DNA from: a virus
Lineage: Duplodnaviria; Caudoviricetes
Virus record (IMG/VR): IMGVR_UViG_3300032087_000151
Coordinates: 1 to 24,610 of that record
DNA: 24,610 bases
Direction: 5' to 3' (one strand)
The notes beneath the pieces are model-generated. The model saw only the letters and a program-made list of their open reading frames with translations. It was not told where the DNA came from and did no database searches. Positions 21,761-24,610 of the stretch are shown in pieces; within the stretch, counting starts at the first letter, position 1, and the number at the start of each line of letters is the position of its first letter. A program made the translations under genes and the position numbers.

Positions 21761-21973
21761 CTATGTATTCTCACCCTGCACTACTGTACACATTGTGTGA
21801 TTAACTGTTAGTGGCATGTTGTGTTTCTTCCACAAAACTTCTAAGTTATACTGCATCTCTTCTAAACGAGTATAGCATCTACCCTGCCCGTCATATGGAC
21901 CATAGGTGTCTGAAACTTTCATGCAGGAATCAGGATTGCCTATTACACAGGCTATAAGTATTGCTTGGAACAT
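21761..21973 (-). CDS. Small Cys-containing protein with hydrophobic N-terminus
   Basis: MFQAILIAC...C...C...C; TAATG coupling. Confidence 0.65.
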   Translation of the reverse strand: MFQAILIACVIGNPDSCMKVSDTYGPYDGQGRCYTRLEEMQYNLEVLWKKHNMPLTVNHTMCTVVQGENT

Positions 21974-22191
21974 TATTCGTTAGGCTCTTTCCAACCTTCA
22001 GCCCTCATTGCGTCCTCTACGTGTTTCAAAGTAAATGAACGCCCATAGTGTGCCTCTACTGCTGTACGCACATAGAAGACATCACTGTGAGGGATATGTA
22101 AACGGTCTAATGAGTTGGTACGTATAGCTTCATAGAAAGCATCAAGTACATTGTCTGTGTATAGTTTTACAGATTTTCTACGTTTTGTCAA
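21973..22191 (-). CDS. Hypothetical protein, first gene of the late operon
   Basis: LHIPHSDVFYVR...AMRAEGW; stop is coupled to the next ATG. The TTG start is uncertain because it coincides with a TTGACA. Confidence 0.6.
   Translation of the reverse strand: MTKRRKSVKLYTDNVLDAFYEAIRTNSLDRLHIPHSDVFYVRTAVEAHYGRSFTLKHVEDAMRAEGWKEPNE
22163..22191 (-). promoter_or_regulatory. Possible leftward promoter
   Basis: TTGACA-N16-TAAAAC(TATA), same layout as the MCP promoter. Confidence 0.5.
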
Positions 22192-22246
22192 GGGAAAACT
22201 TTCATAGCACGTATATTTACTTACGTATCTTATTACTTACCAATGT

Positions 22247-22321
22247 CACTTATAGTGTTACATTGTAAGTGTATTTAACAAGATAATATTAATAACAATT
22301 ATAAGTGAAACACTTTAAGTG
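22247..22321. repeat. Four degenerate 11-bp palindromic repeats
   Basis: CACTTATAGTG at 22247, CATTGTAAGTG at 22261, AATTATAAGTG at 22297 and CACTTTAAGTG at 22311. Confidence 0.6.
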
Positions 22322-22338
22322 TGTTTTGTTATACTATA

Positions 22339-22367
22339 ATTATACTCAGAAATGGGTACACTGTCAA
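22339..22367 (-). promoter_or_regulatory. Main leftward sigma70 promoter
   Basis: Perfect TTGACA-N17-TATAAT upstream of the late operon. Confidence 0.88.
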
Positions 22368-22645
22368 CCCCCTTTTTGTGAATTTAACATCTTTTTATCA
22401 TTTAGTGTGTCTTGGTCCACACACCCCCACCTATTCTGCACAATAAATAGGCAGCTAGTTATCTATAAGGGTGACAGTTACCTTTGTGGTTAACACTTGA
22501 TTTTCCTAATCTGTGTATTTATGTGTATATATAACTATACGTACCGGGGTGGCGTCCTGCCCTACCACCTTGAGTTGTAAAGGTTTTGTTGCTTTGCTAC
22601 TTTAAATTGTAAAAACCAGCTATCAAATAAGATAAAAAACAATTA

Positions 22646-22658
22646 AATCAATAAGTTA
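22646..22658 (+). promoter_or_regulatory. IHF consensus site 1
   Basis: AATCAATAAGTTA matches WATCAANNNNTTR and has an upstream A-tract. Confidence 0.65.
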
Positions 22659-22798
22659 ATAGTAAATCGTTAACTGATACCATATGAATTGCCGCAATAG
22701 CAGTATTAAATAAAGTAAAGAAAGTTAGTCGAGGCTAAGAATGTTATCCGGCCGTGTATCTAATCCTATACCCCCTACTATATTATATACACGTAAGC

Positions 22799-22813
22799 GT
22801 TCCCCTTTTGTTC
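22799..22813. promoter_or_regulatory. Alphaproteobacterial LexA (SOS) box
   Basis: GTTC-CCCTTTT-GTTC, an exact GTTC-N7-GTTC. Confidence 0.75.
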
Positions 22814-22834
22814 TCATCCTATCTGCTACACATA

Positions 22835-22871
22835 GAACGAAACAGGAACGAACTAGAAACAAACCATGAAC
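22835..22871. promoter_or_regulatory. Tandem LexA boxes
   Basis: GAAC-N7-GAAC-N7-AAAC-N7-GAAC with an 11-bp period. Confidence 0.75.
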
Positions 22872-22902
22872 AGTCACCAGCTGGAATATCAAAATCCAAT
22901 AA

Positions 22903-22915
22903 AATCAATGACTTA
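22903..22915 (+). promoter_or_regulatory. IHF consensus site 2
   Basis: AATCAATGACTTA matches WATCAANNNNTTR; 16/19 identity with site 1 including the upstream flank. Confidence 0.65.
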
Positions 22916-22926
22916 TGAGCAAGGGG

Positions 22927-22957
22927 TTTACATTCATTTCGGATTAGTGTTTACTTT
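22927..22957 (+). promoter_or_regulatory. Early promoter 1 (weaker match)
   Basis: GGGG-TTTACA with a TTTACT/TACTTT -10; same GGGG lead-in as promoters 2 and 3. Confidence 0.45.
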
Positions 22958-23042
22958 AATCATCAGCGAGGCGATAACGGCTTCACCTGATTACCTCTTG
23001 AGACTATGGGTCTCTTAACAATCCGCACCAGCGATTGAGGGG

Positions 23043-23071
23043 TTGACAGGGAAAAGCGGTTCTGCCATAAA
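23043..23071 (+). promoter_or_regulatory. Early promoter 2
   Basis: TTGACA-N17-CATAAA, a degenerate -10 of the kind common in alphaproteobacteria. Confidence 0.6.
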
Positions 23072-23154
23072 CTGATGAGGCCATAGGTCAGACGTAGTGC
23101 TTGCCCCAAATTGTGGGGGCTTTATCATCCGCACACTAGCGATGAGGCAGGGGG

Positions 23155-23183
23155 TTGACAGGCCAAGCGCAATGCCCTAGCGT
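23155..23183 (+). promoter_or_regulatory. Early promoter 3
   Basis: TTGACA-N17-TAGCGT. Confidence 0.7.
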
Positions 23184-23186
23184 TAA

Positions 23187-23599
23187 GGGGCAGTGGATGA
23201 GGCCACTTAAAAACCTGCTAGTCGATGGACTATCCAAAAACAGAACCTTGAGACAGATACCTGCGGGGCAACGCACTCAAGATACGAACGGCTCTATGCT
23301 AGAGAACCGTCTTGTAACCAGAACTGTGACCAAGTGTAGCGGTATCGAGGGCGAGATAGGACTAGCGGCTGAGGTGGCAACGGGCGGCAAGCAAAGTAAT
23401 GTAGGGTGAGCGTATTACCGCAGAACTACCCCAAACCGATAGGCGAGGTTCAATAATAGTAATCGACAATTTTTGTAACGAATATTCCGAATACCACTTG
23501 GGGTTGCAAGTCTATCGCTGTATAGCTAACAGAAATTGAAATCCAAAAATAAACAGGGGGGCAATTGCGCTAGGCAATCTGCCAGTTAAGCACTGCCCC
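23187..23599 (+). ncRNA. Candidate large structured non-coding RNA (~410 nt)
   Basis: Begins at the predicted TSS of promoter 3. The ends are complementary over 9 bp, at least 8 further mutually nested helices were found by eye, and there is no credible ORF. Confidence 0.6.
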
Positions 23600-23600
23600 C

Positions 23601-23629
23601 TTGACAACGATGCTTTTACTAGGCATTAT
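23601..23629 (+). promoter_or_regulatory. Early promoter 4
   Basis: TTGACA-N17-CATTAT, upstream of an AGGAG RBS and the ATG at 23675. Confidence 0.7.
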
Positions 23630-23674
23630 CTGCCTACACAGCCAAGAAACACAAACCAACAGGAGATTTTTATC

Positions 23675-24034
23675 ATGGCTAATGTATCATTTGTAGTATC
23701 TTATTGGAAGCAATCAACAGGCTTGACAGGTCAAAACTTAAACGAGGATAATGCTCGTAAGTTTGCTAGGGTTGCCGCTAAGTTCGAGAAAAAGACAGGC
23801 AAAGAATTGTCTAAAACTCGTGCTTACAAGGCAAGCCGTACAGCCGCACGTCAAGTGAAAGCTGAGTTTGGCAGTCGTATTGTCTCAAACTCTAAGGCTA
23901 CGTTTGATTTGCTTTTGACAGGCATTGACAAAACTCTTGACCGCAAAAACCATACCATTGACATGGGGGCTTTTGACGTGCAGGATATTGTTGAACTTGC
24001 TAATCTGCCGAAAGGTAAGCGCAAGTCTGCTTGA
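23675..24034 (+). CDS. First early protein, basic, function unknown
   Basis: 119 aa; AGGAG RBS at 23661; has its own promoter. Confidence 0.85.
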   Translation: MANVSFVVSYWKQSTGLTGQNLNEDNARKFARVAAKFEKKTGKELSKTRAYKASRTAARQVKAEFGSRIVSNSKATFDLLLTGIDKTLDRKNHTIDMGAFDVQDIVELANLPKGKRKSA

Positions 24035-24059
24035 CACTACAGGGGCAATCTGCTAACGT
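24031..24059 (+). promoter_or_regulatory. Early promoter 5
   Basis: TTGACA-N17-TAACGT, overlapping the previous stop codon. Confidence 0.7.
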
Positions 24060-24099
24060 GGATTGTGCCTAGTAAACGCATCAATGACGGGAGATAATC

Positions 24100-24610
24100 A
24101 TGACGTATAATCTTATCGGTGTGGGCAACAATGCCAAGACAATCAAGGGTGATGGGTCTGAATATGAGACAGGCATCCAGTATATGAAACCATACAAAAC
24201 TGTATTCAAGGGCAAGGTGCATAATCTTTGTGCGCTTGCTGACAAGGCTAAGTGCCATGAGGGTTGCCTCAACAGTGCAGGGCGTGGACAAATGGGCGTG
24301 GTGCAAAAAGGGCGTGAACGCAAGACTATGCTCTATCTATCAGACCGCATTGGGTACATGGATGCGCTGTACAAAGACTTGACAAAGTTTAGCAAGCGCA
24401 ATACAAAGAAGGGCGTAAAGCCTTGCGCTAGGCTCAATGGCACAAGCGACATTCAGTTTGAAAAGACAGGTATCATGGAGCAGTTCCCTGAGATACAGTT
24501 CTATGACTACACAAAGATTGTCAAGAGGGCGTATGCCAAACTGCCAGAAAACTATCACCTGACCCTGTCATATTCTGAGGCTGACCCTGAGTATGCCGAA
24601 CAGGTATTGA
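24100..24610 (+). CDS. GP88-like Cys-motif (radical-SAM-like) phage protein, truncated at the right edge
   Basis: Not in the ORF track. GGGAG RBS; MTYNLIGVGNNAKTIKG...CALADKAKCHEGCLNSAGRG...RLNGTSD...QFYDYTK...NYHLTLSYSE; open to the window edge. Confidence 0.75.
   Translation, partial: MTYNLIGVGNNAKTIKGDGSEYETGIQYMKPYKTVFKGKVHNLCALADKAKCHEGCLNSAGRGQMGVVQKGRERKTMLYLSDRIGYMDALYKDLTKFSKRNTKKGVKPCARLNGTSDIQFEKTGIMEQFPEIQFYDYTKIVKRAYAKLPENYHLTLSYSEADPEYAEQVL

Follow-up and report, generated by a model that had tools for sequence, protein, structure and literature searches.

Comparative evidence for a new family of large structured RNAs preceding the early genes of uncultured HMO-2011-type phages, with a shortened member in one viral contig

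What is encoded in the long gene-free stretch that separates the leftward and rightward genes of an uncultured tailed-phage contig? The DNA in question, hereafter the window, comprises 24,610 nucleotides (nt), positions 1 to 24,610 of the IMG/VR virus record IMGVR_UViG_3300032087_000151. Minus-strand genes occupy positions 1-22191 of this 24.6-kb fragment of an uncultured virus record, and a gene-free stretch extends over 22192-23674. A preliminary description, made from the letters of the window, had placed a candidate structured noncoding RNA, possibly of an undescribed class, at 23187-23599, at the head of the early region. From the comparison of related sequences, we consider it very likely that a structured RNA of a new family is encoded here. 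Our preferred fuller reading, which we hold with only a little more conviction than doubt, is that positions 23190-23600 of the plus strand specify a shortened member of an uncatalogued family of 400-560-nt RNAs that would be made first by the host polymerase and would act in trans as a decoy or scaffold.

Loci for comparison were collected through two proteins encoded downstream, one of 119 amino acids (aa) and one of the GP88 family, which gave 35 distinct contigs; membership was assigned by nhmmer together with a covariance model. The element lies at the same place in 27 of these contigs, 24 with the full core and three with the short form found in the window. It is missing from six (L004/L034, L033, and L012-L015), and the remaining two are cut off too near the gene. 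Scans with DNA patterns add members, and the completed scan of viral contigs gave 23 stretches, of which 20 are real. In total, about 30 uncultured HMO-2011-type contigs in IMG/VR carry the element, at lengths of 400-560 nt. The sole cultured-phage match of the window is a 64-nt piece (22472-22535) common to Puniceispirillum phage HMO-2011 and the roseophages CRP-1 and CRP-345, and the label "HMO-2011-type" is reasonable for the window phage because of this shared piece. The element is absent from the ends of HMO-2011 itself, and the RNA of a typical member (L025) has no match among cultured phages.

The candidate interval is conserved whole in only two other contigs, L005/L017 (94%) and L007 (93%). 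In L002, L003, L006, and L023, only the ends align to the window (23143-23289 and 23542-23670), and the middle of loci of this type is a longer, mutually related element whose hairpins change on both sides. Covariation in homologs, which the preliminary description had proposed as a check, is strong in the core alignment, in the 3' domain, and in a pair of loops discussed below. The core alignment (A1; 16 sequences, MAFFT) was scored against a 48-pair structure written from RNAalifold runs on clades. Fully 88.4% of its cells pair, compared with 75.4 +/- 1.0 after column shuffling (0 of 500 shuffles reach the observed value) and 31-42% when the 3' partners are slid by 1-3 columns. Changes on both sides affect 24 of the 48 pairs (115 cells), and the covariation score is 0.396 as against 0.175 for shuffled and at most 0.148 for slid alignments. 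Because these related sequences also supplied the structure, the A1 figures are tilted toward it.

An independent check came from a covariance model of A1 (R1), which finds eight non-seed members (clade C, L002, L020, and L039) with E values from 1e-24 to 2.8e-15; it has no match in relatives lacking the element nor in the ends of HMO-2011. For the 3' domain and 3' hairpin (16 sequences, RNAalifold), 16 of 37 predicted pairs have compensatory changes. The helix closing this domain covaries in the family, reading CCCGA/UCGGG or CUCAA/UUGAG, as does the stem beneath a CCUUGG loop. Furthermore, three G-U pairs are invariant in all 16 sequences, and the RNA is assigned to the plus strand because these pairs would be C-A on the opposite one.

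Folding energy gives a different picture. The minimum free energy (MFE) of 23187-23599 is -121 kcal/mol, whereas shuffled sequences reach -111.9 +/- 5.9 (z = -1.55; 8 of 100 shuffles are as good), and the minus strand of the interval equals or betters the plus strand (z = -1.66). The z values of family members include -1.38 for L006 and -3.21 for L025. From the energy of the window sequence alone, the fold is no more than chance. Folding no better than shuffles, which the preliminary description had named as grounds for refutation, is thus what the interval shows, and energy by itself would have rejected the RNA wrongly, given the covariation among relatives.

Might the interval hold no RNA gene at all, being instead a control region acting as DNA (a promoter array with operators) or the coding region of an 84-aa frame at 23155-23409? 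Several TTGACA promoters and inverted repeats do crowd the region, the frame is open in the window and has an open 82-aa counterpart in L005, and 8 of its 21 changed codons are synonymous. However, the stems covary as their sequences change and the G-U pairs are strand-specific, unlike what is seen at protein-binding DNA sites. The frame, which is the longest in 23187-23599, starts at the TTG of a -35 hexamer, lacks a ribosome-binding site, and owes two of its "synonymous" changes to a compensatory pair (23251/23277). No frame keeps its position or strand across the 27 members, in agreement with the earlier statement that the interval holds no credible open reading frame (ORF). We therefore rejected the 84-aa frame as a gene, since it has no ribosome-binding site and is not kept across the family, and we regard the whole alternative as very improbable.

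The RNA also appears to be absent from catalogs. Rfam has no match at the gathering score and none inside the interval at E values up to 10. Specifically, ROOL, GOLLD, HEARO, IMES-1 to -4, raiA, and OLE give 0 matches at the gathering score in the window and 18 loci, and again 0 at E values up to 10 in window positions 22200-24100, L025 2250-2960, and L006 1950-2580. The signatures of tRNA, transfer-messenger RNA, and RNase P, reported earlier to be absent from the region, likewise have no Rfam covariance-model match in the window, and neither does the phi29 pRNA. A limited literature search, including HMO-2011 together with noncoding RNA, found no publication describing this RNA.

A typical member, that of L025, is about 512 nt long. 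Members run from a promoter through two or three hairpins with A-rich linkers, of two architectural types, to a junction ACGAAC. In the core that follows, Pb, hairpin H1, Pc, Pd, Pe, and Pf are nested, and Pf bears a loop ACCAAG. Next come the junction GGUGGUCAAUG..GGGCG, a variable peripheral hairpin (mostly GGCUAG-UUUUGUnnGUUGU-CUAGCC), a 3' domain that includes the hairpin with the CCUUGG loop, the 3' hairpin, and then another TTGAC promoter. A promoter of the form TTGACN-N17/18-TAnnnT lies 114-164 nt upstream of the ACGAAC anchor in 22 of 26 members, and a TTGAC hexamer begins 0-25 nt after the 3' hairpin in 27 of 27. The 3' hairpin itself is present in every one of the 27, with stem sequences that differ between clades and a conserved asymmetric internal loop, UGCGCUAG / CAGUUAAGC, replaced by UAUGCUAG / AGAUAUUUAUUG in seven. 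A DNA-operator reading of this hairpin was considered and set aside, since its stems covary and the two halves of the conserved loop form no palindrome.

The corresponding parts of the window are as follows.

23155-23183, plus strand: promoter P2 of the RNA, with a -35 hexamer TTGACA (23155-60), a 17-nt spacer, and a -10 hexamer TAGCGT (23178-83); predicted start near 23190
23190-23600, plus strand: predicted RNA, the shortened "W" variant, about 410 nt, both ends inferred, from synteny and the family alignment
23192-23207, plus strand: hairpin HA, AGUGG-AUGAGG-CCACU
23219-23232, plus strand: hairpin HB, UAGUC-GAUG-GACUA (in L006 UAGCC-GAUG-GGCUA, changed on both sides)
23247-23281, plus strand: hairpin HC, outer stem CUUGAG/CUCAAG, inner hairpin UGCG-GGGCAA-CGCA
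23282-23289, plus strand: conserved junction AUACGAAC, with CGAA invariant in 27 of 27 aligned members and ACGAAC (23284-89) used as anchor
23298-23367, plus strand: core subdomain with Pd (GCUAG/CUAGC), Pd2, Pe (CUUG/CGAG), and Pf with its ACCAAG loop
23330-23336, plus strand: loop 1 of a predicted contact, CCAAGUG, with predicted partner 23495-23501
23373-23387, plus strand: conserved junction GGUGGC-AAC-GGGCGG, the counterpart of the family's GGUGGUCAAUG..GGGCG
23396-23418, plus strand: peripheral hairpin GUAAUGU-AGGGUGAGC-GUAUUAC, at the place where most members have GGCUAG-UUUUGUnnGUUGU-CUAGCC
23449-23540, plus strand: 3' domain closed by UUCAAU/AUUGAA, assigned by position and by analogy with the family 3' domain
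23493-23504, plus strand: hairpin ACC-ACUUGG-GGU inside the 3' domain, carrying loop 2 of the contact
23517-26, plus strand: hairpin GCU-GUAU-AGC inside the 3' domain
23557-23600, plus strand: 3' hairpin, stem GGGGGCA/UGCCCCC, internal loop UUGCGCUAG / CAGUUAAGCAC, upper stem GGCA-AUC-UGCC
23601-23629, plus strand: promoter P3 of the early genes, TTGACA-N17-CATTAT, scoring 10/12 in the promoter scan

The two TTGACA promoters, TTGACA-N17-TAGCGT and TTGACA-N17-CATTAT, thus flank the region as had been described. The -10 hexamer of P2 matches the consensus at only 3 of 6 positions, so P2 is not listed by the promoter scan and was read from the sequence.

By its alignment to the others, the window's element is a reduced variant of the family, in which the 5' hairpins, the junctions, Pd-Pe-Pf, both contact loops, a peripheral hairpin, and the 3' hairpin are kept and the 3' domain is restructured. 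Its 5' domain is 91% identical to that of L002, a full-core member, and its 3' hairpin is identical to that of L006. About 45 nt after ACGAAC are absent from the window, L005, and L007. The window's RNA is without H1, without Pb, and without most of Pc, elements that R1 represents at positions 1-50 and 120-157, and it is because the full core of H1, Pb, and Pc is not found that we call the variant reduced. The core subdomain corresponds to R1 positions 51-119 at 17.4 bits, with E values of 9.3e-5 for 601 nt, 0.0038 for the window, and 0.02 for 127 kb. This match is weak but specific, and R1 E values are rough. In the junction that follows, the window's GGUGGC is one base shorter than the family consensus GGUGGYC-AAYG..GGGCG.

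Selection on structure continues within the W variant, judging from changes in HA, HC, 23396-23418, and Pd/Pe/Pf that keep pairs. The HA site reads GGUUG/CAACC in L002, L003, and L006 and AGGUG/CACCU in L029 and L030, and a contig from an RNA library (X5) changes 23194 together with 23205 and 23195 together with 23204, with both pairs kept. In HC, L005 and contigs from three RNA runs carry 23251 A>C together with 23277 U>G, which turns A-U into C-G; one pair of the inner helix is lost in L005. The closing pair of 23396-23418 is A..U rather than G..C in L005 and L007 (read directly, as one alignment puts a gap there), and the changes in Pd, Pe, and Pf in these two contigs keep every pair (C-G to U-G and U-G to C-G). 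HB is one column out of register in four rows of the 5' domain alignment (A3). The helix assignments in the 3' domain are the weakest part of the window model and depend on position and analogy only; the W-variant closing helix of this domain is ambiguous in L005.

The preliminary description had instead proposed a nested fold in which a helix between 23187-95 and 23591-99 closes the RNA, long-range helices lie inside, and the whole switches against hairpins at the two ends. All the complementary segments that it listed do exist in the window, and the unconstrained MFE structure includes both the closing helix and the helix 23215-23/23360-68. That structure is 20 kcal/mol more stable than the homology-guided fold. 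Moreover, the 5' GGGGCGGU of L002, L003, and L006 can still pair with the 3' arm via G-U pairs, and the X5 contig alters 23215 and 23216 with both pairs kept (C-G to U-G and U-G to C-G). Nevertheless, the closing helix needs 23187-89, which are likely upstream of the start, and two covarying hairpins, HA and the one at the 3' end, compete with it. We noticed no 5' complement to the 3' arm on reading the clade A or C sequences, for which no dedicated search was made, and by our estimate about 0.3 perfect 9-bp matches are expected by chance in 410 nt.

Four of the proposed helices are also disrupted in L005 or L007. The helix 23230-34/23355-59 acquires an A-G mismatch through 23233 U>A together with 23356 A>G, both in L005 and in contigs from four runs. 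In 23215-23/23360-68, 23361 A>U breaks the pair 23222-23361 (U-U) in L005. Within the hairpin at 23278-23314, 23295 U>A (A-A) breaks CUCUA/UAGAG in both L005 and L007, and CTAT/ATAG (23512-25) is broken by a 1-nt deletion in L005 or L007. The 9-bp closing helix, GATACC/GGTATC, and ACCCCAA/TTGGGGT met no variation, and two of these three are in competition with covarying helices or loops of the family. We therefore give the long-range closing helix, and hence the switch, little chance of being correct. What survives of the fold are the local hairpins TGCG/CGCA (23262-75) and GTAATGT/GTATTAC (23396-418), which are consistent with the family or with close variants, and the terminal hairpins (23192-207 and 23557-600), described as competing alternatives, which carry compensatory changes. 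The broader proposal of a structured, undescribed RNA class at the head of the early region is upheld by the structure, the covariation, the lack of an Rfam match, the host-type promoter, and the RNA-library contigs on the region, whereas its specific nested fold is for the most part not supported.

A further feature of the family is a predicted contact between two loops. One, CCAAG in the Pf loop, is complementary to the other, CUUGG in the 3' domain, and neither varies; the pair flanking them covaries in 27 of 27 members, being CCAAGG/CCUUGG in 20 and CCAAGU/ACUUGG in seven. These counts were tabulated rather than taken from the 27-sequence alignment (A4), where MAFFT offsets the CUUGG of two groups by one column. 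The members with the U-A state are the window group, L002, and L023/L063/L082; more than one change is implied because L003 and L006, which are close kin of these members, have G-C. Complementarity extends over 7 bp in the window (23330-36 with 23495-501) and over 10 bp in L006.

Covariation of this kind cannot separate pairing within a molecule from pairing between molecules. It is conceivable that the two loops join separate chains into rings or cages, as in ROOL, GOLLD, and phi29 pRNA. ROOL and GOLLD form RNA-only multimers, and the conserved kissing loop of ROOL, which covariation had at first suggested to be a tertiary contact, turned out to connect chains (PMC12286853). The RNA described here is similarly phage-borne and large, with A-rich linkers, and its loop pair covaries in every member, with a complementarity of 7-10 bp in some. 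On the other hand, it has no Rfam match to ROOL, GOLLD, or pRNA, and no tRNA island lies alongside it. No tRNA was found by Rfam in the window, and in four relatives (L022 4475-4545, L025 4359-4429, L029 4168-4238, and L035 4640-4710) the nearest tRNA gene follows the RNA at a distance of about 1.5 kb. We consider an RNA-only assembly distinctly unlikely. If it were true, an RNA-only particle forming within minutes of infection would be the first quaternary RNA of the ROOL/GOLLD kind known from an immediate-early slot, here in an abundant group of marine phages, and such a particle could capture a host factor ahead of all phage proteins.

Is the region transcribed? A run search gave 14 rows recorded as RNA that contain part of the stretch. 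Four RNA runs from three studies were inspected, and all four have contigs on 23105-23599 at 90-99% likeness, the longer ones measuring 479 and 432 nt. Such contigs show neither ends, strand, nor level, and they are compatible with DNA in RNA libraries. The flanks at 21916-23059 and 23788-24610 have no contig cover in the four runs, which is no sign that they are silent. Several contigs stop near 23548, but these come from a single study, have loose ends, and give no indication of the 3' end.

Taken with the promoters, these observations permit a proposal for how the RNA might work. Host RNA polymerase would transcribe it from P2 as soon as the DNA enters the cell, an immediate-early timing suggested by the promoter, starting near 23190. 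The transcript would end or be processed at the 3' hairpin (23557-23600), which is the likely 3' boundary of the RNA as either a terminator or a processing site. The folded RNA itself would then act in trans, perhaps by binding a host factor in the course of host take-over or anti-defense.

Several aspects of the locus favor action in trans. First, a promoter separates the RNA from the genes in every member. Second, the RNA is accessory, being absent from some kin and replaced in L033 (about 2634-2850), L034, and L004 by a small ORF in the same slot, encoding a lysine- and arginine-rich protein of about 70 aa. Third, the RNA is independent of the 119-aa gene, since each is found without the other and no link between the two emerged. 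In L008 and L009 the RNA is present and the 119-aa gene absent, so that the GP88-family gene comes immediately after the RNA and the promoter that follows it (L008 2300-3010); in L033, L034, and L004 the 119-aa gene is present and the RNA absent. Fourth, the RNA occupies a variable, first-expressed slot that T7-type phages use for anti-restriction, as exemplified by the product of T7 gene 0.3.

The principal rival is a cis-acting 5' leader. In that arrangement, transcripts from P2 would run through the fold into the early genes, and the fold would bring about antitermination of the put type or mRNA protection or processing, while transcripts from P3 would stay unmodified. The element does have an early promoter immediately upstream and the early operon downstream, and its 3' hairpin is not a canonical terminator. 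One RNA contig crosses this hairpin into the next promoter region. HMO-2011-type phages are not known to have an RNA polymerase of their own, so that the host enzyme would have to read their long operons. However, all 27 members have a conserved promoter separating the RNA from the genes, and much early transcription would therefore start beyond the RNA. An RNA of this kind is absent from the 22-kb leftward operon, which is served by a perfect promoter of its own. Early genes are also retained in relatives that lack the RNA, and 400-560 nt with a conserved tertiary contact far exceeds what known put-type elements need. The leader seems rather unlikely. On whether the RNA is a discrete trans-acting molecule rather than a leader, which we judge from the arrangement of the locus, we are evenly divided. 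The narrower suggestion of a decoy, scaffold, or anti-defense role is a tentative guess from position and architecture that we regard as somewhat doubtful.

Other points weigh against the discrete, trans-acting RNA that we prefer. The 5' and 3' ends are predicted from the promoter and the 3' hairpin; the RNA-library contigs carry no end, strand, or level information. One X3 contig runs 30 letters beyond the 3' hairpin into a relative's next promoter, and X1 and X3 contigs extend 79-95 letters upstream of P2, fitting a relative's upstream promoter module; because of these contigs, read-through and upstream starts are possible, which would favor the leader. The window's 3' hairpin lacks a canonical U-tract and is not called by the terminator scan. 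As to structure, the match of the window to the core model is weak (17.4 bits), with an E value of 0.95 for L007, and the folding z is unremarkable for both the window (-1.55) and L006 (-1.38). The covariation counts include inherited changes, the sequences being related. The homology-guided fold is less stable than the unconstrained MFE (-92.2 versus -112.1 kcal/mol), and 30 of its 66 pairs occur in the latter. Finally, some of the long-range pairs of the preliminary description may have replaced the lost core helices in the shortened variant.

Comparison with known systems suggests that the family represents a new RNA class within the known kind of "ornate large" phage RNAs, which it resembles. 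Like ROOL and GOLLD (PMC12286853), it exceeds 400 nt, has many helices and A-rich linkers, contains a covarying loop-loop pairing, and is carried by phages. The window RNA matches neither model, however, and is placed between early promoters instead of next to tRNA islands. The level of GOLLD increases at lysis (PMC12286853), whereas the window RNA is predicted to be early.

The likeness to HK022 put and other cis-acting processive antiterminator RNAs is one of position only, directly downstream of an early host-type promoter in a phage relying on the host polymerase. The window RNA is several times larger than put and is present in one copy, in the rightward arm only, with a conserved promoter before the genes. 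Phi29 pRNA also has an early promoter near one map end and two loops whose complementarity covaries while the sequence drifts; the window RNA is more than twice its size and has no Rfam match. The left end of T7 has tandem host-type promoters at the head of the early genes and a first product in a variable, dispensable slot. The first product of the window phage would instead be a conserved folded RNA of the 400-560-nt family, not a protein, and the T7 leader is not known to be a covarying structured RNA.

Two genes follow the RNA in its immediate surroundings.

23675-24034, plus strand: first early ORF, 119 aa, family unassigned, part of the flanking context outside the RNA
From 24100, plus strand: second rightward gene, GP88 family (PF17338)

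To the left, an AT-rich block at 22223-22965 (GC 0.27-0.41) is conserved far more widely than the RNA, at 68-94% over about 400-790 nt in many loci. Its core is the 64-nt piece mentioned above, which is 84-90% identical to HMO-2011, CRP-1, and CRP-345. The block contains a leftward promoter (22367-22339) that matches the consensus at 12 of 12 positions, and the 13-nt extended -35 element of P2, AGGGGGTTGACAG, is identical to that of this promoter. The two copies of AGGGGGTTGACAG form a perfect 13-nt inverted repeat, 22361-22373 and 23149-23161, and there is a third near-copy at 23039-23051. Between a weak promoter-like TTGACA (23043-48) and P2 lies a terminator-like GC hairpin with a T-rich tail (23103-23120), which would give a transcript of about 50 nt and is not conserved in L005.

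Around P3, a 22-nt inverted repeat (23609-23630 and 24061-24082; 86% complementary) brackets the 119-aa gene. Its left arm overlaps the spacer and -10 hexamer of P3 and would be present in the RNA only in read-through transcripts. A short inverted repeat of different sequence flanks the -10 hexamer of the downstream promoter in other clades. The 22-nt repeat could be a processing site or an operator. The tetranucleotide CTAG occurs six times in the 491 nt of 23150-23640 (12.2/kb versus 2.5/kb in the rest of the window; Poisson p about 0.002). Its family mean is 8.9/kb, several copies are conserved in position, in the -10 region, in Pd, and in the loop of the 3' hairpin, and the palindromic core allows several alternative pairings.

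Among bacteria and phages, few classes of structured RNA longer than 400 nt have been described, and most of the phage-borne ones, ROOL and GOLLD among them, are still without a settled function. HMO-2011-type phages are among the commonest phage types in the sea. An RNA needs no translation before acting, and the proposed RNA would thus suit host take-over or counter-defense. In this family, helices that covary strongly are combined with a defined promoter, a tertiary contact kept across members, and natural variants of different size, of which the window holds the "minimal" one. It may offer a compact, testable model for the role of ornate phage RNAs.

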